Shown: positions 36,089 through 52,038, numbered from the stretch's first letter. The stretch is 64,000 nucleotides of DNA from Thermodesulfobacteriota bacterium (GCA_963422265.1 OY729416.1:576001-640000), one strand, 5' to 3'. Program-made: numbers and translations. The notes: a model not told the origin generated them from the letters alone.

Positions 36089-37327
36089 TCATTTATTAAC
36101 GCTTCCAACTGTAGATAATGTTTTTCTACCTTTGGGTTCAGTTATAAAGAAAGTGGAAAACGCCGCGATAAAGCATATCACTGTTGCCACAACCACCGAC
36201 TGATAATGCGAATCAGTCACATCGTAAAGGTAACCTGCAATCAAGGGGCCCGTCACGGAGGCGACTGAAAACCCCGTGGCAGACACTCCGAAGATAGAAC
36301 CTATAAACTTTGTTCCAAAATAGTCACTTAGAAGCGTGGGAAATATGGGCATGTGTCCACTGTAGAAAAATCCGAATAAAAACCCAAACAGGCAAAAAGC
36401 CCACACTGTCTGGCTATAGATAATGATGATTATTGAAACCGCTTCCAGAAAGTAGCTTATAAACAGCACTCTCTTGTTATCAAAAAACTTTGTCAACACG
36501 CCCGAGAAAAACAGCCTTCCAAAGATACTTCCAAAAGCCAAAGCGGCTGGCGCCCATGATGCAACAATTGGATCAATACCAGATTCCTTTGCATAATCAA
36601 ATAGGTTGACGAGTATTATGAGAAAGGTGTTCATTCCCAGAAAGAAAATCACATAAAGTATCCAAAAAGATGAAGTGCTGATAGCTTGACGAACGTTCCA
36701 GTTAGAGAAATCAGGCATTGCAGGTTTGCCATCTGGCTCATCAGCTTTTTCCTCTTTGTCGCCGGGCGATTTACGCATCACAAATGCGGTTGATAAGAGA
36801 AAAGCCGTTATGATCGACAACGTTATAAGAGAATTTTCTAAGCCCATGCCCGCAATAAGCACCGCTACCATGGGGCTTATAACCACCCCAATAACCGGGA
36901 CGCCCAATGTTGCAATACCTATGGCAAGAGCCCTTTTTTTGTGAAACCACCGACTGATAATCGCTACAGTCGGAATGTAAAAGAAACCATTTCCTATACC
37001 CGGTAGAACAGCGTATGCCAAAATAAGCTGCCAGTTGCTTGTAGAAAAGGCGGTCAGAAAAATGCCGGCTACCGCCGTAAACCCCCCAATGAATATCACC
37101 CACTTTGGGCTAAATCTGTCTATTAGCTTTCCCGCAGCAATCATTGAAAATGCAAAAACAACATTCCTTATAGAAAAGAGAGACGAGCTTTCCAGATGAC
37201 TTAGAGCAAATGACTCTTTTAGGTAAGGCATATATATGCTGAATGAATACAGAAGTAGTCCGTCCAGAGAGATTATTATCAATCCTGCTGCAACAATAAA
37301 CCAACCATAATAGACATTCTTAAACAT
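36089..37327 (-). CDS. MFS transporter (OFA/monocarboxylate-like)
   Basis: About 12 TM segments, GKLIDRFSPK motif A, RWFHKKRALAIG; probable ATG at 37327. Confidence 0.9.
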   Translation of the reverse strand: MFKNVYYGWFIVAAGLIIISLDGLLLYSFSIYMPYLKESFALSHLESSSLFSIRNVVFAFSMIAAGKLIDRFSPKWVIFIGGFTAVAGIFLTAFSTSNWQLILAYAVLPGIGNGFFYIPTVAIISRWFHKKRALAIGIATLGVPVIGVVISPMVAVLIAGMGLENSLITLSIITAFLLSTAFVMRKSPGDKEEKADEPDGKPAMPDFSNWNVRQAISTSSFWILYVIFFLGMNTFLIILVNLFDYAKESGIDPIVASWAPAALAFGSIFGRLFFSGVLTKFFDNKRVLFISYFLEAVSIIIIIYSQTVWAFCLFGFLFGFFYSGHMPIFPTLLSDYFGTKFIGSIFGVSATGFSVASVTGPLIAGYLYDVTDSHYQSVVVATVICFIAAFSTFFITEPKGRKTLSTVGSVNK

Positions 37328-37435
37328 AGTGATTATTGGAAACACACCAACTAGGTTAAAACAACTTTGAATACAAGCTGGCAAATAATACCTGATATTG
37401 TTCTATAAAGGATGGGAAGGTTACAGAATGAGTAG

Positions 37436-37485
37436 ATAGGAGGCTAATTATGATATATGACCTTGAGTAATTCAGACCGACCCGA
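37436..37485. repeat. Diverged direct repeat, copy 2
   Basis: See 34989-35038; similarity resumes near 37501 and continues through the pseudo-tRNA. Confidence 0.9.
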
Positions 37486-37544
37486 ACGGGGCTGGACATG
37501 TTTGATGAAGTACTAAATAATTAGTAAACTAGAGTTTCTACTGC

Positions 37545-37620
37545 ATGTCCTTAGCTCAACGGGATAGAGCGATGACTAGGGATCATGAGGTCGGGGGTTC
37601 TACTCCTTCTGGGCGCGCCA
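37545..37620 (+). pseudogene. Degenerate copy of tRNA-Arg (anticodon position now AGG)
   Basis: Colinear with 35230-35306; acceptor mismatches (ATGTCCT/TGGGCGC), T-loop TTCTACT, 1-nt deletion. Confidence 0.85.
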
Positions 37621-37679
37621 GCGCTTTGAGGGAGCCGACCGTATCCAATCCCTGCTCAGATATGGGCATAAGCTTTTTT

Positions 37680-37745
37680 AGTTGACAGTTTTCAGTTAAT
37701 AGTTGTTAGCTGTTAATAGCTCAAAACTTGCAACTGAAAACTAAC
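37680..37745. repeat. 7-nt-periodic imperfect palindrome (AGTTNNN...NNNAACT), copy A
   Basis: AGTTTTCAGTT (37687) and AACTGAAAACT (37732) are perfect inverted repeats; related to 49069 and 50426. Confidence 0.8.
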
Positions 37746-37778
37746 ACAACGGATACCTGACACGCTCCGCATAAAAAA

Positions 37779-40700
37779 ATGACCACATATTCAGACCTAA
37801 CGTTTATAACAAATGAAGGTGAGCAAAGCCTGCTCAATAGGTTTCAGGTTTTAATTAAAGATACCGAATTTTTTGACGTCCTCGTCGGCTATTTTTATAC
37901 GAGTGGGTTCCACGCCCTTTATAAATCTTTAGAGAAAACTAAAAAGATCAGAATCCTAATCGGTATAAGAACCGATAGAGAAACCGTCAATCTTATAGAG
38001 AGAACGAATCAACCAGAATTGCAGTTTTCCCACGCTGAAGCAAAGCAACATTTTTCAGACGCGCTTGTTAACGAACTGAACAACGCCAAAGACGGCAGAG
38101 ACACAGAAGAAGGGGTGCAAAAATTTTTAGAATGGCTGCGAGAGGGAAAACTAGAAATAAGAGCCTATCCCTCTCAAAATCTTCACTCAAAGCTCTATAT
38201 TATGTCTTTTCCTGAAGGCGACCGCGATGTCGGGCGCGTCATCACAGGTTCAAGCAACTTCACGCAAGCGGGCTTGGCAGATAACCTTGAGTTTAACGTA
38301 GAACTGAAAACCCGCAGCGATTATGAATTCGCACGGCAGAAATTTGAAGACTTGTGGGAAAACGCCGTTGACGTAAAGGACATATACATTGAGACAATAC
38401 GTGAGAAAACGTGGCTTAACAACTCCATTACCCCCTACCAGCTCTATCTAAAGTTCCTATACGAGTATTTCAAGGAGGATCTCTCCCGGATGGAAGATAT
38501 CGATTCTAGATATACGCCAGAAGACTTTATGGACCTAGATTATCAAAAGCAAGCCGTGTGGCACTCAAAAAAGATTCTTGAACAATACGGCGGGGTGTTC
38601 ATCTCTGACGTGGTTGGCTTAGGCAAGACATACGTCTCCGCTATGCTGACAAGCCAGCTTGACGGTAGAACGCTCGTATTAGCTCCCCCCATACTTTTAG
38701 ACGAGGGGATCCCGGGTTCTTGGCGAAACGTTTTTTCAGACTTCCACGTGCCTGCTGATTTTAAGTCGCTGGGCAAGTTGGATAATCTCGTTCAGCAAGG
38801 CACACAAAAATACAAAAATATTATAATAGACGAAGCGCATCGCTTCAGAACGGAATCAAACGTCACCTATGAAAGGCTCGCTCAGGTTTGCCGTGGTAAA
38901 AGGGTGGTGCTAGTTACCGCAACCCCGTTCAACAACGCTCCAAGTGATATTTTGAGTCAAATTAAGCTTTTCCAAAACGCCAGGAAGAGCACTATTCCAA
39001 ACATCCCCGATCTTGAGTCATTTTTTGGACAGATAGAGAAAAATACAAAAAACCTAGATAGAAAAAAAGATAGTGAAAGGTATATGCGGACGGTCAAAGA
39101 AAACGCAAGAATAATTAGAGAATCCGTTTTGAAATATCTTATGGTCAGAAGAACAAGACAGGAAATTGAAAATTACTTTGCCAATGACTTGAAAAGCCAA
39201 AATCTCACCTTTCCAAAGGTAGTAAACCCAGAACCCATATTCTATCAGTTTAACAGTGAGGAAAACGCTATCTTCAATGAGACCGTCAGGTTGATCGCTC
39301 AAGAACTCAGTTATGCCCGATACACGCCCATGCTCTATTATGGGGGAGAAGAACGCATGGATCCACTAGAGATACAGTCTCAAAAAAACATGGGAAGTTT
39401 TATGAAAATCCTGCTCATAAAACGGTTAGAAAGCAGTTTTCACGCTTTTGAAAAAACTGTCTCTCGATTCATCTTAAATCACGACTTATTTCTAAAAGAA
39501 TTATTGAAAGGTAACGTTTACATAAGCAAAAAATACGCCAATAAAATTTTTGAGTTTCTGACTGACGATGACGACGAGGCTATTAAGGCGCTTCTTGAAA
39601 ATGACAGAGCGAAGAAATATTCGGCTAAGGATTTCAAGGATAACTTAAAAAAAGACCTAGAGAAGGATCTGCAAACCCTGAAGAAAATACAAGAAATGTG
39701 GCTCAAGGTAAAACGAGACCCAAAGCTTCTTGAGTTCAGAAAAAAACTCTCATCTGACGCTGTCTTGAAGGAAAACAAATTGATCGTGTTCACTGAGTCT
39801 AAGGAAACCGCTGATTATCTTGCGGAAAAACTGAATGATGACTTTCCAAAACAGGTGCTTACCTTTACCGGATCATCCGGGGCGATGATAAGGGAAAAGG
39901 TCATTGAAAATTTTGACGCACGCTTCTCTTCTCCAAAGGATGACTTCCGCATACTAATTGCAACGGAGGTGCTGTCGGAAGGCGTAAACCTCCACCGTTC
40001 CAATGTCGTCGTTAACTACGACATACCATGGAATCCAACCCGCATGATGCAGCGCGTGGGACGCATCAACCGTATAGATACTAAGTTCGATACAATTTAC
40101 ACGTTCAACTTTTTCCCGACCGAACAGTCTAATGATCAAATCAAGATCAAGGAAACGGCTGAGGCAAAGATACAAGCCTTTATAACCCTTTTGGGAACGG
40201 ACGCTCGCCTGCTGACCGAAGGCGAGGTCATAGAATCACACGAACTTTTCAACCGCCTTACCTCTAATAACACCCTTACTGGTGAGGATGAAGAGGATGA
40301 GAGCGAGCTGAAGTATCTGCAAGTCATTAGAGAAGTCCGCGATAATGACCCAGATTTATTCCAGGAAATAAAGCGAATACCCCGAAAGGCGCGAACGGCG
40401 AAGAAGCAAGGAGAAACCGAAAGCCAATTGCTCACGTATTTTAGAAAAGGAAGACTTCAAAAATTTTTCTCCGTCGGCGAGGGAGAACCAGTAGAGGTTG
40501 ATTTCATTCAGGCGGCGAAAGCTCTGGAAGCGGAGAAGGAAGCCAAACGAGAAAAGTTGCCCGCTGACTTCTATGACAAGCTCTCAAAGAACAAGCAGGC
40601 GTTTCAATTAGCCACCAGCGAACCGGAAGTAGAGCTAAGAAGCGCAAGAACTGGTAGGGATAGCTCTGTCCGACTATTCAAGATTCTTAAAGCGATAATG

Positions 40701-40979
40701 AGGGACGACGTCCAGCAACTTACCGAGGAACAGGAGGATTACATCAAAAGCGTAGCAAGACGGCTTGAGGAAGGGGCTTTGCCCAAGCAGACCGCAAAGA
40801 CAGCCTTAGGAGCAATAAACAAGGAACTTAAAAACGGGCGCTTGAACCCTTTGAAATGTCTTGCAATACTGCAAAATAGCATTCCTGACGAGCTTCTGGA
40901 AAGCCACGTTGCGGAAAGCACCGCTCTCACCTCTGGACCTAGAGAAGTGATCTTGTCGGAATACTTAATCAGCAATTAG
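37779..40979 (+). CDS. PLD-nuclease plus SNF2-like SF2 helicase, R-M associated
   Basis: LVGYFY, LHSKLYI and ITGSSNFT (PLD); DVVGLGKT, IDEAH, TATP, EGVNL, QRVGRINR (helicase). Confidence 0.88.
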   Translation: MTTYSDLTFITNEGEQSLLNRFQVLIKDTEFFDVLVGYFYTSGFHALYKSLEKTKKIRILIGIRTDRETVNLIERTNQPELQFSHAEAKQHFSDALVNELNNAKDGRDTEEGVQKFLEWLREGKLEIRAYPSQNLHSKLYIMSFPEGDRDVGRVITGSSNFTQAGLADNLEFNVELKTRSDYEFARQKFEDLWENAVDVKDIYIETIREKTWLNNSITPYQLYLKFLYEYFKEDLSRMEDIDSRYTPEDFMDLDYQKQAVWHSKKILEQYGGVFISDVVGLGKTYVSAMLTSQLDGRTLVLAPPILLDEGIPGSWRNVFSDFHVPADFKSLGKLDNLVQQGTQKYKNIIIDEAHRFRTESNVTYERLAQVCRGKRVVLVTATPFNNAPSDILSQIKLFQNARKSTIPNIPDLESFFGQIEKNTKNLDRKKDSERYMRTVKENARIIRESVLKYLMVRRTRQEIENYFANDLKSQNLTFPKVVNPEPIFYQFNSEENAIFNETVRLIAQELSYARYTPMLYYGGEERMDPLEIQSQKNMGSFMKILLIKRLESSFHAFEKTVSRFILNHDLFLKELLKGNVYISKKYANKIFEFLTDDDDEAIKALLENDRAKKYSAKDFKDNLKKDLEKDLQTLKKIQEMWLKVKRDPKLLEFRKKLSSDAVLKENKLIVFTESKETADYLAEKLNDDFPKQVLTFTGSSGAMIREKVIENFDARFSSPKDDFRILIATEVLSEGVNLHRSNVVVNYDIPWNPTRMMQRVGRINRIDTKFDTIYTFNFFPTEQSNDQIKIKETAEAKIQAFITLLGTDARLLTEGEVIESHELFNRLTSNNTLTGEDEEDESELKYLQVIREVRDNDPDLFQEIKRIPRKARTAKKQGETESQLLTYFRKGRLQKFFSVGEGEPVEVDFIQAAKALEAEKEAKREKLPADFYDKLSKNKQAFQLATSEPEVELRSARTGRDSSVRLFKILKAIMRDDVQQLTEEQEDYIKSVARRLEEGALPKQTAKTALGAINKELKNGRLNPLKCLAILQNSIPDELLESHVAESTALTSGPREVILSEYLISN

Positions 40980-40999
40980 TATCTACGCGTCGCCTCAAC

Positions 41000-41028
41000 T
41001 TGACGGAGACATCCATAAAATATATACT
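41000..41028 (+). promoter_or_regulatory. Sigma70 promoter of mazEF
   Basis: TTGACG-17 nt-TATACT followed by repeated TATAC boxes (possible autorepression operator). Confidence 0.7.
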
Positions 41029-41069
41029 TGATTGCTATACACTTATATACGTAAGGGAGACTTAAAAGC

Positions 41070-41318
41070 ATGGAAATTCAAGTCAAGAAATGGGGTAATA
41101 GTCTTGCCCTACGTATTCCTAAACCCATTGCCCGACGACGTATTGGCGTCGAAACTGGGTCCGTAGTTAGGCTGTCCCTTCTTCGCGGCGCAGACTTAAC
41201 TATATCGCCTGCGAAACGCTCCAATGCACGGCTGGATGACCTCTTAGCGGGCGTAACAGAGTATAACTTGCACGGCGAAACAGATACTGGACCTGCGATG
41301 GGTAAAGAAGTATGGTGA
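41070..41318 (+). CDS. mazE: AbrB/MazE antitoxin
   Basis: VKKWGNSLALRIPK, LDDLLAGVT..NLHGE.D.G...GKEVW. Confidence 0.93.
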   Translation: MEIQVKKWGNSLALRIPKPIARRRIGVETGSVVRLSLLRGADLTISPAKRSNARLDDLLAGVTEYNLHGETDTGPAMGKEVW

Positions 41319-41680
41319 GTTCGGTAGTGAATGTCCCGCAGCGTGGCGATGCCGTCTGGATTGATCTCAATCCTCAGATGGGAAGTGAACAGGCTGGTCT
41401 CCGGCTGGCCATTGTGCTCTCGCCTGGTGCTTACAACGGCAAGGTTGGATTGGTGCTAGTTTGTCCAATTACCAACCGGAAGAAAGGGTATCCCTTCGAG
41501 GTTAATATATCAGAGGACATAAAAGTGAGTGGGGTTATTCTAGCCGATCAGATGAAGAGTTTGGACTGGCGGGTGAGAAATGCCAAAGTGATAACCTCAT
41601 TACCAAAGGAAACAGTAGAGGAGACTTTGCATAAGGTAAGTTTGCTTCTAACAAAGGATAACGATTCTATTAATGACTGA
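41312..41680 (+). CDS. mazF: MazF/PemK endoribonuclease toxin
   Basis: PQRGDAVWIDLNPQ.GSEQAG.R, CPIT...KGYPFEV, DQ.KSLDWR.R. Confidence 0.93.
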   Translation: MVSSVVNVPQRGDAVWIDLNPQMGSEQAGLRLAIVLSPGAYNGKVGLVLVCPITNRKKGYPFEVNISEDIKVSGVILADQMKSLDWRVRNAKVITSLPKETVEETLHKVSLLLTKDNDSIND

Positions 41681-41761
41681 GAGTCACAAACTATATTTCA
41701 ACTATCTTTGAGGTGTCTAGCGGACTCGCAATACCTTCTTAGCTTACTGAAGGCTTGAGAT

Positions 41762-44700
41762 ATGAATAAAACTTCCGCCAAGCATTTAGTAAAGCAAACG
41801 CTAGAGCATTCTTTTGACAAAGGGCGCTTTGCTTATTTAGTTAAGAATATCCTTAACCATGTTGACGAAGACTCTTTCACCTACCAAGGCAATTTAATAT
41901 TTGATGACTTTGACGATTCAATAGCAAAAGTAGAACGCACAAGCAAATATACTGACCCGCAAGATAGACTCCTCGACATTCTGGTTGTCCACCTTAAAAA
42001 AGAAACCTCGCTTGAGCGGGCGCGGACGATGCAAAGAAACTTCGTCGCCAAATACCTTAATGGTAGTCGGGGCGGAGTATTAAAAGACGCCGCGCTTGTA
42101 GCATTTGTAGCGCCTAATGGTGAAGATTGGCGTTTCTCCTTTGTCAAGATGGAATACAGGTTCGATGAAAAGGGTAAAGTAAAAGAAGAGTTCACTCCCG
42201 CCCGCCGTTACTCATTTCTAGTAGGTAAAAACGAACATAGCCACACTGCCCAGAGCAACCTCTTGCCTCTGCTTCAGGACGATGAAGCGAAACCCACGCT
42301 CGCATACATAGAACAAGCCTTTAGCGTAGAGCGGGTTACGAAAGAATTCTTTGAAAAATACAGAGAGCTTTACCTACATCTTAAAGAGGCTTTGGACGAG
42401 ATTGTAGAGAAAGACCCAAAAATAGAAGCGGACTTTGAAGGCAAAAGCGTAGATACCGTTGATTTCGCTAAAAAGCTTATGGGTCAGATTGTATTTCTCT
42501 ATTTCCTACAAAAGAAGGGATGGTTTGGGGTGGCGAGAGGAAAAGAATGGGGTGAAGGCAATAAGCAGTTTTTGCGACACTTGTTTCCAAGGGAGCGGGA
42601 AGAAGGTAAGAACTACTTCAATAGATTTCTAGAGCCATTATTCTACGAGGCTCTGCGATTAGAGCGTCCCAAAGACTATTACGATCAGTTTGAATGTCGT
42701 ATTCCGTTCTTAAACGGTGGGCTTTTTGATCCTATAAACGATTACGATTGGCAAGATACGGATATAGAGATACCGAATGAGATTTTCAGTAATAATGAAT
42801 TAACGAAAGAAGGGGATACAGGAAGCGGGATTTTAGACGTTTTCGACCGTTACAACTTCACTGTCAAGGAAGATGAACCACTAGAGAAGGAAGTGGCGGT
42901 TGACCCTGAGATGCTCGGAAAGGTCTTTGAGAATCTCCTTGATATTAAAGACCGAAAGTCCAAAGGGACTTACTACACGCCGCGTGAGATTGTTCATTAC
43001 ATGTGTCAAGAGAGCCTGATCAATGCGTTACATACTAATCTTGATGGAATCATTCCTATAAATGACTTGGAAGCACTTATAAAACATGGTGATGCTTTTG
43101 TTGAGCATGAAGAGACCCGTATTGAAAAAATTGCTAACAGAAAGGCTAAGAATGCAGATTACAAAGGAAGTTACAAGAGGCGGCGGCTTCCAGCTAGTAT
43201 TGAAGAATATGCTGAACTTATAGATGATGAACTAGCTTCAATGCGTGTATGTGACCCGGCAGTGGGAAGCGGCGCATTCGTAGTGGGAATGATGAATGAG
43301 ATAATAAGAGCAAGAAGGACGCTCGCACCATATACTGATGGGAACAAAGAAGACGCATCTTATCACTTCAAACGTCACGCAATACAGCACTGCCTTTACG
43401 GCGTAGATATAGATCCCGGAGCGGTAGAAATCGCTAAGCTCAGGTTGTGGTTATCGCTGGTCGTAGATGAGGAGGATAGGGGGAAAATAAAACCTTTGCC
43501 CAATCTGGACTATAAAATTATTCAAGGTAATTCTCTCTTAAGCGTTGAGAAAGACCTTTTCAACCAAGAGCTGTTTAACCAGATTGAGAAATTGAAACCG
43601 CTTTATTTCAATGAAACGAATGCGGGGGAAAAACAAAAGTATAAAAACCAGATTGATGAACTCATTAGTCAGATTACCAAAGGACATAAGGAGTTTGATT
43701 TTGAAGTTTACTTTTCAGAAGTTTTCCATAATGAAAAGAAAGGCTTTGACGTTGTAATAGGCAACCCACCGTATGTCAATGTCGAAAACCTTTCTGCGGA
43801 GATGCGGAGCTACCTGTTCAGCAATTATCAAGCCTGCGAAAAGCGTACGGATATTTACATCGCATTTCTTGAAAAATCACTTTCCCTGCTCAACGGCAAC
43901 GGATCGATGTGCTTTATCATTCCTGCCGCTTTCACCAAGCAACAGTATGCAACGACAATGCGCAAAATCTTCGTTGCAAACCACACCCTTCAGGAATTGG
44001 TGGACGCCAGCAGTTACCGCATTTTTGAGAATGCGGTTGTGTACAATGTTGTTTTGAGGATTGCCAAGGGCAGAAAAAATGTGCCGACAAGGATACGACT
44101 GTATCACAACAATAGTGACTTTGACAGTCGCAGCGGTATGGAATTCCTGGTTGACCAGAGCTTCTTTGACTTACTCAAGGATTGTCGCTTTGACACAAAC
44201 CCGTCCATTTCGGATGCCGTCAAGATAAAGGAAAAGATATGGCGCAATGCCATACGCCTTGATCGGATTTGCCTCATTGCCTACGGTGCCAGACTCAACC
44301 ATCGTTCCGCAAAAATTGGTAAGTCGCACTACATAAGCTCGTCGCCGGTCGCTGGCAGCAAGAAGTTTTGCGAAGGGCGCAACATTGGACGCTATTCATT
44401 CTCTCAAGACGGCTGGCTGGATTACGCACCGGACGAGCACTACAACCCAATGTTTCCAGAACTGTTTGAGAGCGAGAAGCTGATGTTCATCAACATTGTG
44501 AAAGACCGGCTGCGGTTCGCCTACGATGATGAAGGCTTCTACAACAGCCACACTGTCATAAACTGCGTGCGGTTGGACTTGCTTTCCGGGACCCCGCATA
44601 CATCAGCTGTTCGCGCGATAAGAAATGCTGACATCTCAATCGCTAGACGGTTTGACTGCAAATTTCTGCTGGCAATTCTCAACTCGCAATTGACAAACTG

Positions 44701-44947
44701 GTACTTTCTCAATTTTTTGAGCGAAAGTCTTCATTTCTATCCCAACGACGCCAAAGAACTTCCCATCCCCAGAGTCCACGCCGCCGAGCAGCATCCGTTC
44801 ATCCGCCTCGTTGACAGCATCCTCCAAACCAAATATATCGATCAGTCTGCCGCCACCACTGAGCAGGAAGCAGAGATAAATCAATTGGTCTACGCGCTGT
44901 ATGGATTGACGGCAGGGGAAATTGAACTTGTGGAGGGGGAAAGGTGA
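41762..44947 (+). CDS. Eco57I/TaqI-like (type IIG-like) N6-adenine DNA methyltransferase with C-terminal TRD
   Basis: IPFLNGGLF, VDPEMLGKVFE, GTYYTPR, DPAVGSGAF (motif I), GNPPY (motif IV), LLAILNS TaqI_C-like tail. Confidence 0.92.
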   Translation: MNKTSAKHLVKQTLEHSFDKGRFAYLVKNILNHVDEDSFTYQGNLIFDDFDDSIAKVERTSKYTDPQDRLLDILVVHLKKETSLERARTMQRNFVAKYLNGSRGGVLKDAALVAFVAPNGEDWRFSFVKMEYRFDEKGKVKEEFTPARRYSFLVGKNEHSHTAQSNLLPLLQDDEAKPTLAYIEQAFSVERVTKEFFEKYRELYLHLKEALDEIVEKDPKIEADFEGKSVDTVDFAKKLMGQIVFLYFLQKKGWFGVARGKEWGEGNKQFLRHLFPREREEGKNYFNRFLEPLFYEALRLERPKDYYDQFECRIPFLNGGLFDPINDYDWQDTDIEIPNEIFSNNELTKEGDTGSGILDVFDRYNFTVKEDEPLEKEVAVDPEMLGKVFENLLDIKDRKSKGTYYTPREIVHYMCQESLINALHTNLDGIIPINDLEALIKHGDAFVEHEETRIEKIANRKAKNADYKGSYKRRRLPASIEEYAELIDDELASMRVCDPAVGSGAFVVGMMNEIIRARRTLAPYTDGNKEDASYHFKRHAIQHCLYGVDIDPGAVEIAKLRLWLSLVVDEEDRGKIKPLPNLDYKIIQGNSLLSVEKDLFNQELFNQIEKLKPLYFNETNAGEKQKYKNQIDELISQITKGHKEFDFEVYFSEVFHNEKKGFDVVIGNPPYVNVENLSAEMRSYLFSNYQACEKRTDIYIAFLEKSLSLLNGNGSMCFIIPAAFTKQQYATTMRKIFVANHTLQELVDASSYRIFENAVVYNVVLRIAKGRKNVPTRIRLYHNNSDFDSRSGMEFLVDQSFFDLLKDCRFDTNPSISDAVKIKEKIWRNAIRLDRICLIAYGARLNHRSAKIGKSHYISSSPVAGSKKFCEGRNIGRYSFSQDGWLDYAPDEHYNPMFPELFESEKLMFINIVKDRLRFAYDDEGFYNSHTVINCVRLDLLSGTPHTSAVRAIRNADISIARRFDCKFLLAILNSQLTNWYFLNFLSESLHFYPNDAKELPIPRVHAAEQHPFIRLVDSILQTKYIDQSAATTEQEAEINQLVYALYGLTAGEIELVEGER

Positions 44948-46920
44948 GCGCGTCTGAACGGCAAGACACAACCGTCAGAATCCTGGCATTGATTAAGGAA
45001 ATCACAGTAAAGTCCTCCGATGAAAACTACATCTACCGCGGTGAACCAGAACGCTACCCTAAAGTATCCTCGACGCTTCACCGCCAATTCGCAGACGTGG
45101 ATGCGGCGCACTTTAATCTGGAGGAAGTCCAGAAGGAGATACTGAAAAATGCCAAGAAATACACATCCACAACTGATGAGTTGGAAATCCTGACACAACT
45201 CCAGCACCATGGCGGCAACACCAATCTTATCGACTTTACAAACGACTGCCACATAGCCCTCTTTTTCGCCTGCGACGGTTCCTATGACAAAGATGGTAGG
45301 GTTGTCCTGCTGAAAAAAGCAACGGAACAAGGCCAGATCAGACAGCCCCGGAACCCTGCCAACCGCGTCATCGCTCAGAAGAGCATCTTTGTGCAGCCAC
45401 CTAAAGGCTTTATTAGCCCCGATGGTGATCCCATCATCATCCCGAAGGACCTCAAAAAACACATACTGGACCATCTGCAAAGATACAAAGGCATATCCAC
45501 CGAAACCATCTACAACGACCTGCACGGCTTTATCAAAAATCAGGGAATCCACCAAAGTGCCTACACGGAGTTTTACAGAGGTCTGACTTATTCAACAAAG
45601 AGAGGTGAATCGGCAGACAAGAAAAAACAACGGGAATTCTATAAAAAAGCCATTAAACATTACACTGAAGCCTTGAGATTGAACCCGAATCTCGCCTCAG
45701 CCTACTGTAACCGAGGAGTCGCCAAGGAAAAACTTGAACTACACGGAGAAGCCATTGAAGACTATAACCAAGCTATTAGAATCTATCCTGATTTTGCAGA
45801 GGCATATAATAATCGCGGGACTGCTAAAGACAAACTAGGCAAACACGAAGAAGCCATTGAAGACTTCGACAAAACCATTAGTATCAATCCTAACCTTGCA
45901 GAGGCATATAATAATCGCGGGACTGCTAAAGACAAACTAGGCAAACACGGAGAAGCCATTGAAGACTTCGACAAAACCATTAGTATCAATCCTAAATATG
46001 CAGAGGCATATAGTAATCGTGGGGCTGCCAAAGGAAAGCTAGGCAAATACGAAGAAGCCATTGAAGACTTCGACAAAACCATTAGTATCAATCCTAACCT
46101 TGCAGAGGCATATTTCAATCGTGGGACTGCCAAAGGAAAGCTAGGCAAATACGAAGGAGCCATTGAGGACTTCGACAAAGCCATTAGTATCAATCCTGAA
46201 TATGCAAACGCATATTTCAATTGCGGGGTTGCCAAATACGACCTAGGCAAATACGAGGAAGCTATCAAAGACTATAACGAAGCCATCAGCATCAATCCTA
46301 AATATGCGAAGGCATATTTCAATCGCGGGACTGCTAAAGACAACCTAGGCAAACACAAAGAAGCTATCAAAGACTACGACAAAGCCATCAGTATCAATCC
46401 TGAACATGCAGAGGCATATTGCAATCGTGGGGCTGCCAAAGGAAAGCTAGGCAAATACGAAGAAGCCATTGAAGACTTCGACAAAGCCATTAGCATAAAT
46501 CCTGAATATGCGGAGACATATTACAATCGCGGGAATGCTAAATACACACTAGGCAAATACGAAGAAGCCATTGAAGACTATAACCAAGCCATTAGTATCA
46601 ATCCTAAATATGCAGACGCATATTGCAATCGTGGGGCTGCCAAAGGAAAGCTAGGCAAATACGAAGAAGCCATTGAAGACTTCGACAAAGCCATCATCAT
46701 AAATCCTGAATATGCAGACGCATATTGCAATCGCGGAGAGGCTTGGCTGCACTTGCAAGTATGGGAAAAAGCCAAATCAGACCTGACCAATGCCAAGAAA
46801 AAGGGAGTAGATATAATCGCTGCGTTTCATAACGACTATAAGAGCATTGAAGACTTCGAGCGGAAGAATGACGTTGAGCTTCCGGAAGACATCAAAGCCC
46901 TGCTGATACGAAAGTCGTAA
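44944..46920 (+). CDS. FRG-domain protein with C-terminal TPR array
   Basis: YIYRGE, LQHHGGNTNLIDFT, IALFFAC, NRVIAQKSIF (FRG); about 11 34-aa TPRs; GTGA overlap with the MTase stop. Confidence 0.88.
   Translation: MSASERQDTTVRILALIKEITVKSSDENYIYRGEPERYPKVSSTLHRQFADVDAAHFNLEEVQKEILKNAKKYTSTTDELEILTQLQHHGGNTNLIDFTNDCHIALFFACDGSYDKDGRVVLLKKATEQGQIRQPRNPANRVIAQKSIFVQPPKGFISPDGDPIIIPKDLKKHILDHLQRYKGISTETIYNDLHGFIKNQGIHQSAYTEFYRGLTYSTKRGESADKKKQREFYKKAIKHYTEALRLNPNLASAYCNRGVAKEKLELHGEAIEDYNQAIRIYPDFAEAYNNRGTAKDKLGKHEEAIEDFDKTISINPNLAEAYNNRGTAKDKLGKHGEAIEDFDKTISINPKYAEAYSNRGAAKGKLGKYEEAIEDFDKTISINPNLAEAYFNRGTAKGKLGKYEGAIEDFDKAISINPEYANAYFNCGVAKYDLGKYEEAIKDYNEAISINPKYAKAYFNRGTAKDNLGKHKEAIKDYDKAISINPEHAEAYCNRGAAKGKLGKYEEAIEDFDKAISINPEYAETYYNRGNAKYTLGKYEEAIEDYNQAISINPKYADAYCNRGAAKGKLGKYEEAIEDFDKAIIINPEYADAYCNRGEAWLHLQVWEKAKSDLTNAKKKGVDIIAAFHNDYKSIEDFERKNDVELPEDIKALLIRKS
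45694..46713 (+). repeat. Ten tandem 102-bp TPR-coding repeats, high nucleotide identity
   Basis: Unit starts at 45694, 45796, 45898 ... with a terminal unit beginning at 46714; consensus AEAYxNRGxAKxxLGKYEEAIEDFDKAISINPxY. Confidence 0.95.
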
Positions 46921-47409
46921 TGAGTCTTTATAAACTGAGCTTTTACAATTAACATGCAAAACCTTCTTCCTCATCTCCCCTATTAACTGTATAACAAACC
47001 AACATCTGTGGATTATCGGTCTTAGTTTTTGGTATCCTGAACTGGTTGGTGAGTTCACCAAACCGTTCAGCTCTCCCGCCCTTTTGAAAACCTTACAAAC
47101 TTATACTTTTTAGCGATTTTCTGGCTATGGAAAAGATGGTTTGACACGGCTTTAAGTGCTTTTAAGAACAGAAACCCTAATGATTGCAGGGTTTTGCAAA
47201 AGATTTTTGCCCGTAAAGTTTTTAATAACTTTCACGGATAACTCTCAGATTAAACAACTTTTAAAACGCTATTTAAGCCTTTATTTATAGGGGTTTAATG
47301 GACGTTTAATGAGATGAATAAGTGTCATATTATACCAACTTGTGCGGTAAAGTTTTTTTAAGTTCGCTTCTTAAATTTGATTTCTTTAATCCTGTATCAA
47401 ATCCCCCTT

Positions 47410-47705
47410 AATCCCCCTTTTCTAAAGGGGGAAAAGAAAGAGTAACCACCGATAAATTGCTCGTGTCGTTTTTGGCAAGGCTGGATTCCCGCTTGGAGGC
47501 AGGAATGACAAAAGCGCTCTCACACCTTGTTCTCCCCGTCAAATCCCCCTTTTCTAAAGGGGGAAAAGAAAGGGTAATCACCGATAAATTGCTCGTGTCG
47601 TTTTTGGTAAGGCTGGATTCCCACTTGGAGGCAGGAATGACAAAAGCACCTTCACACCTTGCCGGCCGTCAAATCCCCCCCCCTATATCCCCTTTTCTAA
47701 AGAAG
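47410..47705. repeat. About 132-bp tandem non-coding repeat (2 full copies plus a partial third) made of REP-like palindromes
   Basis: Units start at 47410, 47542 and about 47672; contain TCCCCCTTTTCTAAAGGGGGA and CTGGATTCCC..TTGGAGGCAGGAATGACA. Confidence 0.9.
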
Positions 47706-47989
47706 AATAGCAAAAGGACTAGATTCCAATTCCCACCTATATGTCATTTTGACCCATGTCCCGAGGGAAGCCGAGTGGATAGGAGATATCTGTCTTTTAC
47801 TTGGTTGAGAGAAAAGATGAGATCCCTCTACTCAGCTACCCCATTCGACAAATTCAGGATACCGCTTCCTCGTTTTCATAAGAACTTGCTTTTAGGGAAC
47901 GCATGTATATTGCAAGCCCCAAAAAACTATGCGCTCTGCCCTTTATCAGATTCAAGATATGGTTGTGGCAGAGTAGAGGAGGAAGCAAA

Positions 47990-49057
47990 ATGAAGAACAC
48001 CAAAACACTAACTAGTGAGTTGTTAGATATCGAGGATGTCTTTTCCGCATCCTTAGCCCCGCGCACACGGAAAGTTTATGCTAAGTGCTGGCGCGAGTTT
48101 GAAAAATATTGCGAGCAGGAGGGAATAACTCCTCTTGAGGCGACTGCTGAGCAAGTGGCTAATTTCTTTATATGGATAGCCAATCAGCCACGCCCCAAAA
48201 GTATGATGGGAGAGTATCTGAAGATGGGGACTTTAGTTCAAATCAAGAGCGCTATCGCCAGACGGTTTAAGGATAACGATAAGGCATCCCCAACAAGTAG
48301 TGCAAAGGTAGAGTTGGCGTTGAAGGGACTGGCGCGGCTAAAAGGGAATAAACCCCGACAAGTAAAGGCTCTGACGGACAAACATATAAAGAAAATCCTA
48401 ACGAAGATAGATTATGAAATCCGAAGGTATTCAACAATGCCACCTTCTGAACGCTCCCTCGGAGATAGAATAATAACCAAGAAGAGGGGCAAATGGAGTT
48501 GGACTTACATTCAGCGAGCAGCCAAGCTATACAGGGATGCTTCTATTCTGTCGTTAGGTTTTGCAGCAGCCCTAAGGCGTTCTGAAATTATGGGAATTAA
48601 GGTAGAACACTTAGAGTTTATCAAAAATTCTAATAAGATGATCCTTCATATACCTAAATCCAAAACGGATCAGGAAGGGCTAGGACAGCAAATTCCGATT
48701 ATTGACGGTAAGAGTATTCAGCCAATAAGGCGTCTGAAAGAATGGCTGAACGTCTCAGGGCTTAAGAGAGGATACGTATATGTTACATTAAATAGAGCGG
48801 GCTCTTTTAATGATACTCCCCTGCACTTCTCCGACATCCCACGTATTATCAAACGATATGGAAAGTCAATCGGGCTTAATCCTAAGGAAATCTCTGGACA
48901 TTCACTGCGCGCGGGATTCGTTACTAGCGCCGCGGCTCATAAGGCAAGCCTTCATAAAATAATGGAAATCACACGGCATACAAGCCCTGTAACCGTAATG
49001 AAATATATTAGAGAAGCCAATTCTTTTAAGGATCATGCTGGAGGTAAATTTTTGTAA
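47990..49057 (+). CDS. Cre-like tyrosine recombinase/integrase
   Basis: GAGGAGG RBS before ATG 47990; ALRRSE (R), SKTDQEG (K), SGHSLRAG (HxxR), TRH, MKYI (Y). Confidence 0.92.
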   Translation: MKNTKTLTSELLDIEDVFSASLAPRTRKVYAKCWREFEKYCEQEGITPLEATAEQVANFFIWIANQPRPKSMMGEYLKMGTLVQIKSAIARRFKDNDKASPTSSAKVELALKGLARLKGNKPRQVKALTDKHIKKILTKIDYEIRRYSTMPPSERSLGDRIITKKRGKWSWTYIQRAAKLYRDASILSLGFAAALRRSEIMGIKVEHLEFIKNSNKMILHIPKSKTDQEGLGQQIPIIDGKSIQPIRRLKEWLNVSGLKRGYVYVTLNRAGSFNDTPLHFSDIPRIIKRYGKSIGLNPKEISGHSLRAGFVTSAAAHKASLHKIMEITRHTSPVTVMKYIREANSFKDHAGGKFL

Positions 49058-49068
49058 ATCTACAAACC

Positions 49069-49149
49069 AAAGACAGTTTTAAGTTAGCAGTTATGAGTTT
49101 TCAGCAACTAGAAACTAATAACTGACAACTGTTCTTGAAACTTAAAACT
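49069..49149. repeat. 81-bp 7-nt-periodic palindrome, copy B (identical to 50426-50506)
   Basis: AAAGACAGTTTTAAGTTAGCAGTTATGAGTTTTCAGCAACTAGAAACTAATAACTGACAACTGTTCTTGAAACTTAAAACT. Confidence 0.95.
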
Positions 49150-49343
49150 TAAAATTCATATAGGATAAACCTGAGCAGACTGAGGTTGAGAGTTAATTTG
49201 AACGAGGCGGGACTGGTGTTCCCCCCATTGACAAAACCATTGTCATCAACATAGACAATTTCAAGGCAGAAAACCAACTTAATTTTGCGTTTTGCGTGTT
49301 TATGCTACAGTACAAGTTTATCACGTCATATACGGCAGATGTA

Positions 49344-50366
49344 ATGATGTCATTGGAAGAGCATATACTGGATATTCAAGACAAGCTTAACAACAATAAA
49401 TATCCAAATGAGCAGGCAATCTCTCAAGGGGTTGTTTTGCGACTCTTAGAGACCATGGGGTGGCCAATTTATGAGCCAACATTGGTGATTCCGGAGTACA
49501 GGGTAAATGGCAGGAGAGTGGATTTTGCCCTGTGCACGCAAAGCGATAAGCCCATGATCTTTATTGAAGTAAAGCAACTTGGTAATACGCTTGGGGCAGA
49601 CAAACAAGTGTTTGAATATGCTTATCACAAGGGAGTTCCATTCGCTATCGTAACGGACGGGAGAGAGTGGCATTTCTATCTGCCTGCAGAAGTAGGAAAC
49701 TATGACGAACGGAAAGTATATGTGCTGGATCTAGTGGAACGTAATGTGCGTGAATCTTTAGAACATTTGCAGCGATATCTATCTTTTAATGAAGTAGAAA
49801 GCGGGAAGGCACTGGAAAATGCACGAGAAGATTATAAGAACGTATCAAGAGAGAGACGGGCCAGAGAGAATATTCCCGAAGCATGGAGAAAACTGATCAA
49901 AGAAGGGGATGAAATATTAATAGAATCTGTGTCTGAGAAAGTAGAAGCCCTTTGTGGATTTAAACCCGCGCAACAGCAAGTCCTCTCCTTTTTGAAATTA
50001 TTGGAACCAAACTCCGCAATAACTGAAACTAGAATAACACCGTCTGAAGGAAATCATCCTTCGCCAAAGCAGAGAAAGAAGATCAAAGTAACATTTCCTG
50101 ATGGAGATGAAATATATGAATCTGTAGTGGCAAAGATGTTTGTTAGAGTTATCAGGAAGATCGGTGCTGAAAAAGTACGTTCGTTAAATATACAGCAAGC
50201 TGGATATCCACTAATTTCGGAACAGGAATACAAAGACAAAGGACAGTGGGCTGCTGTTGATTCGGGGCTTTATGTGAATACGTGCTCAAATACGGATGTG
50301 AAATGTCAACACTTATGTGAAATAAATAGAAAACTGAACCTGGGATTAAAAATTGTTCCAAAGTAA
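49344..50366 (+). CDS. Stand-alone HsdR-N-like PD-(D/E)xK nuclease with small C-terminal domain
   Basis: PNEQAISQGVV, IPEY...RVDFAL, IFIEVK, QVFEYAY, IVTDGREWHFY; no helicase. Confidence 0.8.
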   Translation: MMSLEEHILDIQDKLNNNKYPNEQAISQGVVLRLLETMGWPIYEPTLVIPEYRVNGRRVDFALCTQSDKPMIFIEVKQLGNTLGADKQVFEYAYHKGVPFAIVTDGREWHFYLPAEVGNYDERKVYVLDLVERNVRESLEHLQRYLSFNEVESGKALENAREDYKNVSRERRARENIPEAWRKLIKEGDEILIESVSEKVEALCGFKPAQQQVLSFLKLLEPNSAITETRITPSEGNHPSPKQRKKIKVTFPDGDEIYESVVAKMFVRVIRKIGAEKVRSLNIQQAGYPLISEQEYKDKGQWAAVDSGLYVNTCSNTDVKCQHLCEINRKLNLGLKIVPK

Positions 50367-50425
50367 GGAAAATAATCTACATATGTATTAGTGATCTGTT
50401 TGACCTTTGCCTTTTGGATGGTAAA

Positions 50426-50506
50426 AAAGACAGTTTTAAGTTAGCAGTTATGAGTTTTCAGCAACTAGAAACTAATAACTGACAACTGTTCTTGAAACTT
50501 AAAACT
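50426..50506. repeat. 81-bp 7-nt-periodic palindrome, copy C
   Basis: Identical to 49069-49149; similarity extends to GATAAACC(A)TGAGCAG. Confidence 0.95.
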
Positions 50507-50522
50507 CATATTGAGATAAACC

Positions 50523-50908
50523 ATGAGCAGTTGGACAGATAGTTACGAAGACGCAGAAGTTTTTATCCGCTGCTGGTAAAAACATTGGTATAGGAGAAAA
50601 TCCTAAAATCTGGATTGCCCTTAACTTTAATAAGGAAGGCAGACACCCCAAACTGATTGTCAGAGAGCTTTCTATAAAAGCTTTAGTCGATTGCTTTTTC
50701 AAGCCAGAGATGTATCAGTCAGCAGTTGAAACGATGCTTGAGCCAGACGCTGTGATTTTCGTAGAAACAGATAGATTCTATTGACGTTACAGATTTTAGA
50801 CCCGCACCAGACTTTGACGAAGCATGGCTGGATTCCTTCATCGGAAGCCAGCCAGATTGCACCGGAGAATTGACAATGGAAGAGTTCATAAATGGTTCTT
50901 ATGCTTAG
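50523..50908 (+). pseudogene. Fragmented hypothetical gene following repeat C
   Basis: Open pieces GQIVTKTQKFLSAAGKNIG...KEGRHPKLIVRELS...AVIFVE and IDSIDVTDFRPAPDFDE...EEFI in shifted frames. Confidence 0.5.
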
Positions 50909-51035
50909 GAGGCAACTTTTTTCTTTCCTCAATCATTTGCATTACCACACTGAGCTTTTGTAAATCCTTGCCCTGCTTCTTAAGTTTTCTTACGTCCTTT
51001 CGGAACTGTCTTTGTACTACTACCTTTCGATTCAC
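50886..51035 (-). pseudogene. Truncated YafQ/RelE-family toxin
   Basis: QFRKDVRKLKKQGKDL.KL..V...I.....LPPKHKNHL then stop at about 49 aa; the usual family length is about 90 aa. Confidence 0.75.
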
Positions 51036-51297
51036 CAATTGCAATTTCTCCAAAGAAAGAACTAACAGACTCCACTTGTTCAAGGTCAATTCCCATCTCT
51101 GTATTCATTATCGATTCCATAGTTTTTTGTGGCAGCCTCACATCAAATGGTAATCCGCGATTAATAATTATGCTTGAATAAAACATATCTATTGCGGATG
51201 AGGGAGTTAACCCTAACTCCGCAAGTATGCGTTCTGCTACGTTCTTCTTCTCTAAATTTATTCTTGATGCGACTGTCCCTTTCTTGTGACCGTTCAC
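50980..51297 (-). CDS. DinJ/RelB antitoxin
   Basis: SRINLEKK..AE.IL.ELGLTPSSAI.MF...I....GLPFDV..P. Confidence 0.85.
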   Translation of the reverse strand: MNGHKKGTVASRINLEKKNVAERILAELGLTPSSAIDMFYSSIIINRGLPFDVRLPQKTMESIMNTEMGIDLEQVESVSSFFGEIAIGESKGSSTKTVPKGRKKT

Positions 51298-51331
51298 TAT
51301 TCCTCTCCCGTGTTCTTTATTTCCTCAGAAC

Positions 51332-51350
51332 TGTCAAACAATGTATGACA
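51332..51350. promoter_or_regulatory. Palindromic operator upstream of the dinJ-like gene
   Basis: TGTCAAACAATGTATGACA inverted repeat next to a minus-strand TTGACG box. Confidence 0.5.
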
Positions 51351-51402
51351 AAGTTATACTTTGTTTGAGTCTTCGTCAAGTTTATACAGAAAATCATTAT
51401 TT

Positions 51403-51468
51403 ATAGTAAAATGGGGGTTCTCTTTAGGGCGTTCTGGATGAGCTAAATCTCAGACGCCTTAAGCGCAA
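51403..51468. repeat. 66-bp diverged copy of an internal recF segment (52230-52295)
   Basis: Direct repeat with 5 mismatches by eye. Confidence 0.9.
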
Positions 51469-51469
51469 C

Positions 51470-51919
51470 CGCTGTTGGCGGAATTGGCGCAGTGGAACAG
51501 ATGATTCGCGTAGGTGCGATTAGTGAAATTCGTATTTTCTACCGGTTAAAGGCTCTTCACCTCTCTTGTCAGATTCAAAAGCTGAAGACCCTGTAACAAC
51601 CGTTTGCTGATTTGGTATAATTATCTACTAAGAGCTTTAAGGTAAGCCCTATGTTTTTTACGCGCTGCGCCTCGTCTATCAGGATGAGCTTTGTATCACC
51701 GATAACCTGCTTGAGCGAGGTTGAACTTGCATCGGTTAGCATATCCCTTACACCCGGCTCATCACAGTTTAACAATTTAGACTAGTAGGGATACTCCCTT
51801 TGTATATCTTTTATTAGTGTAGTTTTACCCACCTGGCGGACACCGGTAACAATAATTGCTTTGCCCTTGAACAACCTGCTTTTTATTTTATCCTGTAAAA
51901 TTCTTTTAATTTGAATCAT
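51470..51919 (-). pseudogene. AAA_14/DUF4143-type ATPase remnant
   Basis: GVRQVGKTT, internal TAG, LIDEAQR, frameshift before TGSSAF...EPLTGRKYEF, truncated. Confidence 0.8.
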
Positions 51920-52038
51920 TATTTATAAAGATTATAATCGAAAAATATTATAATATATTGTGATTATACTCACTTAAATACTGCAAACCGACGGAATACA
52001 TAGGTTCATTATCTGCGTAAATCTACTTTTCAGTAAGC

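Follow-up and report, generated by a model that had tools for sequence, protein, structure and literature searches.

Defense island and its palindromes

A 64,000-nt stretch of the genome of a Thermodesulfobacteriota bacterium (GCA_963422265.1, OY729416.1:576001-640000; source genome a single contig of 1,783,595 bases), hereafter the window, was analyzed around a defense island in which three imperfect palindromes with 7-nt periodicity, designated R1, R2 and R3, lie among defense genes and next to a tyrosine recombinase gene. An earlier note on this DNA had taken the recombinase and the palindromes for an integron-like cassette system. Here the palindromes are interpreted as probable gene-less copies of a hairpin cassette with heptameric arms, the gene-bearing form of which encloses a gene of the four-helix-bundle family PF05635 (23S_rRNA_IVP, hereafter IVP). 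The features of the island are collected in Table 1; unprefixed coordinates are window positions and those prefixed C1 are positions in the genome contig. A RecF-like gene lies beyond the RelB-type gene, on the minus strand.

Table 1. Features of the defense island (window coordinates)
Feature	Coordinates	Strand	Evidence or remark
tRNA-Pro (anticodon AGG)	37545-37620	+	ARAGORN; 60 nt before R1; Rfam tRNA 25.5 bits, below gathering score of 29
R1	37680-37745	none	Diverged AGTTNNN/NNNAACT heptamer palindrome
HKD(PLD)-SNF2 helicase, defense-type	37779-40979	+	Pfam PLDc_2, Helicase_C, ResIII; PADLOC "HKD+Snf2", E 9.9e-46, DrmD-like
MazE antitoxin	41070-41318	+	Pfam MazE_antitoxin, E 5.5e-9
MazF/PemK toxin	41312-41680	+	Pfam PemK_toxin, E 2.4e-24
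Type IIG/PglX-like methylase	41762-44947	+	Pfam Eco57I, N6_Mtase, MmeI_Mtase, TaqI_C; PADLOC REase_MTase_IIG, E 2.3e-247, aa 1-884
FRG-domain and TPR-repeat protein	44944-46920	+	Pfam FRG, TPR; PADLOC PDC-S15, E 1e-20
Tandem 132-nt units with ~28-nt G/C hairpin core	47403-47702	none	Direct repeats D4, D6
Tyrosine recombinase	47990-49057	+	Pfam Phage_integrase, E 1.6e-15
R2	49069-49149	none	81-nt heptamer palindrome
HsdR_N-like (PD-(D/E)XK-type) gene between R2 and R3	49296-50366	+	Pfam HSDR_N, E 7.5e-8; HSDR_N_2
R3	50426-50506	none	81-nt palindrome, identical to R2
18-codon stub open reading frame (ORF)	50524-50580	+	After R3; start region resembles sequence 3' of R2
RelB-type antitoxin gene	50980-51297	-	Pfam RelB, E 1.1e-14; right edge of segment absent from strain X1

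Sequence and folding of the palindromes

R2 begins 11 nt past the recombinase stop codon (49057) and, in a repeat search of the window, was 100% identical to R3 over 81 nt at a spacing of 1357 nt; the likeness extends, more weakly, to 49178 and 50530, respectively (91% over 112 columns). Coordinates, identity and Pfam matches agreed with the earlier description of two identical copies bracketing an HsdR_N-like gene, and a diverged third copy was likewise found before the helicase/methylase operon, where R1 has arms of 28 nt each (37687-37714 and 37715-37742) with 79% complementarity. The proposed AGTTNNN/NNNAACT build was also confirmed: the triple AGTTN3AGTTN3AGTT matched 11 times in the window, every match falling inside R1, R2 or R3, against 0.03 expected by chance, and 11 matches were reached in 0 of 100 shuffles of the window. 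A period-7 score that presupposes no unit returned R1, R2 and R3 as the sole sites in the window scoring at least 23/35. Each palindrome consists of two arrays of 7-nt units in inverted orientation, separated by a loop of 0-11 nt with no PF05635 gene between the arms, and reads GTT...AAC on both strands. The example of arm covariation given earlier was correct (C/G in R1, A/T in R2). A + strand gene or gene start follows every copy, as had been noted: that of the helicase after R1, the HsdR_N-like ORF after R2 and an ATG at 50524 after R3, the last opening the stub only.

Folded as single-stranded DNA (ssDNA), R2 gave -14.1 kcal/mol (z -2.94; equaled by 2 of 200 shuffles) and R1 gave -13.2 kcal/mol (z -2.91; equaled by 0 of 200). 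Rfam models searched over 36500-52500 (E ≤1) matched a tRNA alone and assigned no RNA family to the palindromes. Intrinsic terminator prediction returned 18 terminator-like sites in 37000-52000, a number not above that of shuffles (14.8 ± 4.0), none of them on R1, R2 or R3, and an exact 37-nt piece of R2 had no match in the metagenome contigs.

The IVP cassette

The AGTT triple matched 18 times in the genome, in seven clusters that make up six elements: R1, R2, R3, two copies in a type I restriction-modification (RM) operon and one pair of split arms 400 nt apart. The split arms (C1:995016-995060 and 995437-995462) bracket a complete PF05635 gene (C1:995082-995396, E 9.7e-41), and an identity of 15 nt is shared by R2 and the upstream arm. 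This is the only PF05635 gene of the genome, and R1-R3, with their short loops, could belong to such a cassette class only as gene-less derivatives. The cassette (L001 7012-7464, corresponding to C1:995011-995463 of this genome, G000) is hosted in frame by methylase P0121, an N6_N4 ORF of 854 aa. In genomes G046, G049 and G062, orthologs (61-68% identity) align to aa 1-595 and 747-854, just 36 nt separating the two parts, so that arms and IVP gene together constitute one 453-nt insertion with sharp ends; the empty sites in these three orthologs contain no heptamers. No stop codons interrupt the P0121 host frame across the IVP coding part; in 30 other IVP genes, by contrast, alternative forward frames held 2-19 stops. 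A second nested case was found at L099 981-3314 (G054:C67), where the DUF1156/N6_N4 methylase ORF that encloses an IVP gene (1483-1845) spans at least 778 aa and its frame is likewise free of stops. Judged from its sequence, the cassette in P0121 looks like a case of dual coding kept by selection.

IVP genes were present in 18 of 61 genomes of the taxonomic order. Thirty loci were fetched and 25 scored, the remaining five having no tblastn match to the IVP protein of this genome. Among the 25, both flanks exceeded the locus background maximum of the period-7 score in 16, the flanks were inverted-complementary beyond all 100 shuffles in 20, and inverted pairing exceeded direct similarity of the flanks in 19. 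The heptamer units themselves differ from copy to copy. Inverted heptamer arms with differing cores thus bracket IVP genes in many loci, which bears out the earlier suggestion that pairing rather than exact letters is what recurs. Plasmid records with an IVP homolog numbered 30, mostly cyanobacterial; in the 10 that were examined (Cyanobacteria, Bacteroidota, Alphaproteobacteria), a periodic flank was found in nine and inverted arms in seven, giving 35 IVP loci from four phyla with inverted heptamer arms in most. The plasmid IVP genes are located between ribonucleotide reductase subunit genes, between cas6 and cas4 (twice), between cmr2 and cmr3, and after integrases; the integrase beside the IVP gene of a Calothrix plasmid was compared with the window recombinase and found unrelated (best E 0.98).

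Heptamer units are shared by the four closest IVP protein pairs alone (unit distances 0, 0, 1 and 2, vs a mean of 3.4). One such pair, L131 (Nostoc plasmid) and L107 (this order), comes from different phyla and has the same unit, AAGTCAG. An apparent type I RM operon in genome G024 (L126/L112, G024:C5:466100-468260) reads hsdS, IVP, a RhuM-like third gene, IVP and hsdR, these names being putative and taken from end sequences; both IVP copies have arms of the AAGTGAA/AAGTTAT type. In the literature excerpts that name it, the 23S-rRNA-IVP family is called uncharacterised or is noted in cas loci. A full-text search, which did not extend to supplementary files, returned no paper linking heptamer repeats with the IVP/S23p family.

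Heptamer arrays elsewhere in the genome and in relatives

The two AGTT copies in the type I RM operon stand just before a Fic gene and before the 5' stub duplicated from it, the arrays ending 12 nt before the Fic start; the operon also encodes AAA_21, DUF6338, DUF1828/1829 and reverse transcriptase proteins. Its Fic, DUF6338, DUF1828/1829 and reverse transcriptase genes are separated by mosaic spacer modules (L002 7425-7880, 8690-9086 and 10424-10597) that share segments of 217 nt (97%), 62 nt (100%) and 103-106 nt (71-91%), one module including the Fic 5' stub and its array. No intact copy of the window recombinase was present at either of the two other array sites of this genome.

Among 31 related genomes the AGTT triple occurred in seven, of which only this genome (18 matches) and G024 (9 matches) exceeded the reversed-pattern control (0-2 per genome). 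Six G024 arrays were inspected; all were gene-less AGTTTNN arrays or palindromes, neighboring genes for DapF, a MacB-type permease, acetyl-CoA carboxylase, an aldo-keto reductase, a P450 and a Trp/Tyr-tRNA synthetase, and two of the six were located between convergent genes. The best G024 match to the window recombinase was weak and Xer-like (E 2.4e-4). Arrays thus occur without the recombinase, both elsewhere in this genome (two places) and, beside housekeeping genes, in G024.

In G065:C22 (L157 4570-8714), five AGTCGTT-type arrays lie at the junctions of cas6, AbiEii, cas4, IVP and cas1, with cas3 upstream of cas6; the arrays follow cas genes at their 3' ends, and an inserted AbiEii gene is enclosed by two. 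With arrays of one unit at every junction of this cas block and two around AbiEii, arrays do mark the boundaries of inserted genes.

The recombinase and its family

The recombinase ORF opens at 47903. Translation likely starts at the ATG at 47990, giving a protein of 355 aa, because homology to related proteins begins near aa 44 and protein P0001, 98% identical, is 355 aa long. Residues R225, K254, H333, R336, H359 and Y368 were invariant in an alignment of 28 sequences; with its Phage_integrase domain and this R-K-H-R-H-Y set, the protein belongs to the tyrosine recombinase superfamily, and we take the six residues to have the catalytic roles of the R-K-H-R-H/W-Y set. Matches in the PDB at E ≤0.01 were weak, to an XerA-like protein (E 3.5e-5) and Cre (E 0.002-0.007) and to nothing else. 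Five NCBIfam models matched, all of XerA/XerC/XerD/XerS type and far under their cut-offs (best 56.3 vs 220 bits), with no integron-integrase model among them. The earlier note had likewise judged the enzyme not to be IntI-like, and the polarity of the sites to be opposite to that of attC.

A protein collection yielded 2158 recombinase homologs among 7149 candidates. Loci were compared using the best 80 of 572 relative-encoding stretches (from 600 candidates in genome contigs; 957,158 bases). The AGTT triple was found in 0 of the 80 loci, a period-7 array within 300 nt of the recombinase gene also in 0 of 80, and a period-7 array anywhere in the locus in six; no shared palindrome 3' of the stop codon was seen by eye in the 20 best homologs. 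A single-protein query found no close relative of the recombinase in genome contigs or metagenome contigs.

In self-comparison, inverted repeats ended just upstream of the recombinase at many of the homologous loci. A large Eco57I-type methylase gene lay directly upstream in 27 of the 80 (tblastn with the window methylase as query), and in 20 of the 80 the space between the two genes also held a C-terminal (TaqI_C) fragment in inverted orientation, a layout backed by Pfam in L014 and L022, the former also having a MazF gene. PglX and Eco57I-type methylases are described in the accessible part of Milman et al. 2023 (PMC9881135) as enriched targets of programmed inversions. From this layout, recombinases of the family would usually act to switch the 3' end of a type IIG/PglX-like methylase gene by inverting into it a silent fragment that encodes a specificity domain. 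The window retains an Eco57I/TaqI_C methylase gene upstream on the same strand, with the FRG-TPR gene and the tandem repeat block intervening. An inverted copy of the methylase specificity part was found neither genome-wide (tblastn with the methylase) nor as a repeat pair in the window, and a sensitive search of 44900-52500 for a remnant of it returned noise only. The window recombinase is thus predicted to be of a known kind, an orphaned methylase-switch recombinase, because the inverted specificity fragment is gone from the locus. Hosts of the family (L013-L092) are metagenome-assembled genomes (MAGs) labeled Dehalococcoidia, Gammaproteobacteria, Thermodesulfobacteriota, Latescibacterota, Binatia, Acidobacteriota and others, several bearing sponge-associated taxon names. 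Wide spread of the methylase-switch module by horizontal transfer is suggested.

Strain comparison

Strains were compared using k-mer contigs of runs X1, X3, X4 and X6, which break inside R2 and R3. X3, X4 and X6 showed the reference structure. X1 represents a diverged strain that retains 37572-43776, R1 included, and in which a 31.5-kb contig joins 47607 to 50999, without the recombinase, R2, the HsdR_N-like gene or R3. Since a dispersed repeat makes up the left side of this joint, its exact left end is uncertain, and the absence of 47608-50998 belongs to a larger difference. No joint leaving out 1357 nt, and so no recombination product of R2 and R3, was seen in these contigs, which could not have revealed one. 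Zero-depth bins of X1 beyond the joined contig, and the X1 joint 49108->50425 with sides of 32 nt, were excluded as evidence. The palindromes thus lie, as previously proposed, at defense-gene junctions in a strain-variable segment; because the related strain X1 has no recombinase/R2/gene/R3 segment, this end of the island is variable between strains. X1 also contains a recombinase contig of about 95% identity (61 differences in 1131 letters) at a summed depth of 191, vs about 40 for the flanks. Two loose ends were seen in X1. One turns into unlike sequence past 49142; in the other, past 50487, a clean run of a single heptamer takes the place of the right arm.

A minor joint leads from 51470-51521 back to 48957 (2565 nt) at a depth of 4 vs about 21 in X3 and 42.5 vs about 250 in X4. 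It could represent a tandem form, a circular form or another arrangement with the recombinase 3' end. The X1 contig also lacks the 606 nt from 51443 to 52048. The methylase specificity part (43777-44895, 1119 nt) is skipped in contigs of X3, X4 and X6; it is shallower than its flanks, 41974-43875 is deeper, and a paralog at C1:1108459 may add depth. Strains or paralogs seem to carry other methylase specificity domains.

Neighboring genes and repeats

The HsdR_N-like protein had no PADLOC or NCBIfam match, and its homologs in 11 loci of the order (32-42% identity) were without heptamer arrays. The 3' 32 nt of the tRNA-Pro gene have no second copy within the window, and hence no att-type duplication exists there. 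The hairpin core of 47403-47702 had 27 BLAST matches genome-wide, two of them of at least 100 nt; summed contig depth of this repeat was very high in the four runs, up to 8565 in one, and the ~28-nt core is accordingly widely shared in those samples. The FRG-TPR gene contains ten 102-nt (34-aa TPR) repeats at 45598-46815, the number of which varies, since several runs have contigs that leave out whole multiples of 102 nt (102, 204+3). In the RecF-like gene a 66-nt fragment is duplicated at 92% (51403-51468 and 52230-52295). A paralogous module at C1:1108008-1113673 (within L097, G000:C1:1098000-1117000) comprises a MazE stub, a remnant of the recombinase (aa 86-128, 53%), and genes for a type IIG methylase (68%) and an FRG-TPR protein (79%). 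A CfrBI-type RM pair lies before the module, and a 69-nt copy of the hairpin core comes after it.

Interpretation of the palindromes

On balance we favor, with moderate confidence, the explanation that R1-R3 are gene-less copies of a heptamer-armed hairpin cassette lodged at the junctions of acquired defense genes. The element would be built from a degenerate 7-nt unit, AGTTNNN in this genome, repeated in two arrays of opposite orientation, and would be of the same kind as the form that bears an IVP gene. Such units would enter as discrete insertions between, and sometimes inside, the genes of acquired operons (RM and other defense), and R1-R3 would derive from arm-gene-arm units through loss of the gene. 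For the arm-gene-arm unit itself, discrete insertion, inverted periodic arms and a location at cistron junctions were observed. On a transcript the arms would pair into a long imperfect stem, which might be processed or might insulate adjacent cistrons, much as RNase III acts on the IVP-bearing intervening sequence (IVS) of 23S rRNA. The identical R2/R3 pair would stem from a duplication of about 110 nt that took place recently, along with the gain of the HsdR_N-like gene, as opposed to a site-specific cassette capture.

Several points weigh against this interpretation. Hairpin stability as ssDNA is moderate (z about -2.9), and the copies in the type I RM operon fold no better than shuffles (z -0.41; equaled by 70 of 200). 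IVP protein distance and heptamer distance are not significantly correlated (r 0.115, reached in 185 of 2000 permutations; 25 of 33 loci). All six elements of this genome are in defense loci and R2/R3 bracket exactly one gene; arrays mark the borders of inserted genes and may have a cassette-like role that does not involve the window recombinase. The X1 copy of the recombinase continues into the palindrome's left arm before unlike sequence follows, which is how a recombinase-linked site would look. Kinship of R1-R3 with the IVP arms is argued from the AGTT unit, the 15-nt identity and co-residence among six elements, and slippage may have produced the resemblance by convergence. The RNA-level mechanism is drawn by analogy.

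A wider proposal is put forward tentatively. Heptamer cassettes, with or without an IVP gene, might form one cross-phylum mobile system that punctuates acquired, chiefly defense, operons, the IVP protein recognizing its own arrays as DNA or RNA. In this proposal, equally tentative on each count, cassettes would insert between cistrons, even in frame within methylase genes that are kept open, and pairs of arrays might carry foreign genes, such as the HsdR_N-like gene between R2 and R3 and AbiEii between AGTCGTT arrays in the G065 cas operon. If it is true, the earlier "cassette" idea was right in kind and named the wrong enzyme. The IVP/S23p family and the heptamer repeats found between bacterial genes have both long gone unexplained; the present locus adds gene-less and gene-bearing forms with the same unit co-resident in one small genome, a dated insertion with empty orthologous sites, and two cassettes within DNA-methylase ORFs, the frame cleared of stop codons.

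Alternative explanations

The arrays might instead be cis-regulatory, the heptamer runs binding a protein (possibly IVP) or the ribosome in 5' leaders and tuning the next gene, as proposed for TAACTGA repeats, most of which lie a few nucleotides upstream of start codons (accessible part of MacGregor 2015, PMC4679880). R1, R2 and R3 each precede a + strand start, the type I RM operon copies stop just short of the Fic start, and a single heptamer family accompanies a single IVP gene in this genome, all of which fit. Two of the six inspected G024 arrays between convergent genes, the G065 arrays at cas gene 3' ends and the distance of about 150 nt or more from R2 to the next start do not, and we consider the explanation unlikely. 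It is compatible with, and does not exclude, the cassette interpretation; binding by protein or ribosome is a proposal.

A passive origin is judged decidedly unlikely. By this account the palindromes are functionless AT-rich runs that arose in spacers by replication slippage or hairpin-templated repair, R2 and R3 being a segmental duplication. The units are indeed degenerate, fold z-scores are modest, the reduced 1.78-Mb genome retains arrays in variable defense loci only, and the loose end of X1 in which a clean one-heptamer run replaces the right arm suggests slippage. Against it stand the sharp ends of the insertion formed by arms and IVP gene, its heptamer-free empty sites, the maintenance of inverted pairing across many different cores, and the unit AAGTCAG common to close IVP genes of different phyla (L131 and L107).

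In the integron-like scheme of the earlier note, the recombinase would recombine folded palindromes and thereby capture, excise or shuffle defense cassettes downstream of itself. The placement of R2 immediately after the recombinase gene, the identity of R2 and R3 around one gene, the X1 joint that leaves out recombinase, R2, gene and R3, and the X1 recombinase copy of higher depth that enters the left arm before unlike sequence were all in keeping with it. The claim that the palindromes are recombination sites of the adjacent recombinase failed on the 80 homologous loci, none of which has an array within 300 nt of the gene, and the scheme as a whole is not supported, because homologs occur without repeats and repeats without recombinase (two other genome sites and G024), outcomes that the note had itself counted as refuting. 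It is further weakened because the context conserved in the recombinase family pairs a type IIG methylase with a specificity fragment in inverted orientation. Integrons consist of IntI, attI and attC-bounded cassettes, several in number and promoterless, with the integrase divergently transcribed, and attC has RYYYAAC at its 5' end and GTTRRRY at its 3' end. Here no integron-integrase model was among the five NCBIfam matches, the polarity GTT...AAC is the opposite of attC, the recombinase is co-directional with the "cassette", one gene is bracketed, and R1 is found 11 kb upstream, ahead of a block of five genes. We regard the scheme as very improbable. Since recombinases of this family, found in uncultured bacteria of many phyla, usually occur in the methylase specificity-switch layout, the case cautions against calling every recombinase with a palindrome an integron.

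Most improbable of all are tandem islands at tRNA-Pro, with R1-R3 as attL/attR-type junctions left by successive recombinase-catalyzed integrations: the order of tRNA-Pro, R1, an 11-kb defense island closed by the recombinase gene, R2, a small module and R3 would suit them, and against them are the unrepeated tRNA-Pro 3' end, the strong divergence of R1 from R2/R3, the retention in X1 of R1 and the helicase-to-methylase part without the recombinase segment, the lack of a close recombinase homolog in the related genomes searched, and the methylase-inversion context of the family.

Comparison with known systems

The locus resembles an integron in having a tyrosine recombinase beside a gene bounded by imperfect palindromes in which pairing outweighs sequence; it differs in the missing IntI signature, the opposite polarity, the co-directional recombinase, the single gene and the homologs without sites. 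Repetitive extragenic palindromic and bacterial interspersed mosaic elements (REP/BIME) and hairpins of the miniature inverted-repeat transposable element (MITE) type are likewise short imperfect palindromes, multicopy, strain-variable and found in operon spacers, whereas the present elements have a 7-nt periodic unit, number six only and include a gene-bearing form.

Programmed inversion of PglX/Eco57I-type methylase genes (accessible part of PMC9881135) is matched in that the family recombinase follows such a methylase in 27 of 80 loci; in the window the methylase lies two genes upstream of the recombinase. The difference is that window and genome have no inverted fragment, the FRG-TPR gene standing in its place; the switch of the family is predicted from sequence layout.

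Heptamer repeats are also represented by the cyanobacterial short tandemly repeated repetitive (STRR) sequences. The TAACTGA heptamers of Beggiatoaceae, Cyanobacteria and Bacteroidetes (accessible part of PMC4679880) share with the present arrays an intergenic location, a 7-nt unit with an AACT/AGTT core, nearness to starts and a patchy distribution across phyla. The right arm of R2 holds one exact TAACTGA unit. In that collection 169 sets are direct and one is indirect, whereas the arrays here are degenerate palindromes; the accessible text of that paper contains no mention of "intervening", "four helix" or "S23" (PMC4679880).

A likeness in size and layout is found in rRNA. IVSs of 23S rRNA that bear an S23p/IVP ORF occur in Leptospira and others. 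In Coxiella burnetii, the 23S rRNA IVS that carries an IVP ORF is excised by RNase III, and such units are about 430-450 nt long, with a four-helix-bundle ORF and inverted flanks that pair in the transcript, the same size and layout as the P0121 cassette (accessible part of PMC4990558). R1-R3 differ in having no ORF, and the copies described here lie in mRNA operons and spacers and not in rRNA; a 7-nt periodicity of the arms goes unmentioned in the excerpts of the IVS literature consulted, and the likeness is one of sequence. Of the systems compared, the heptamer-armed IVP cassette is the class to which the palindromes are best assigned, R1, R2 and R3 being best read as its gene-less members.

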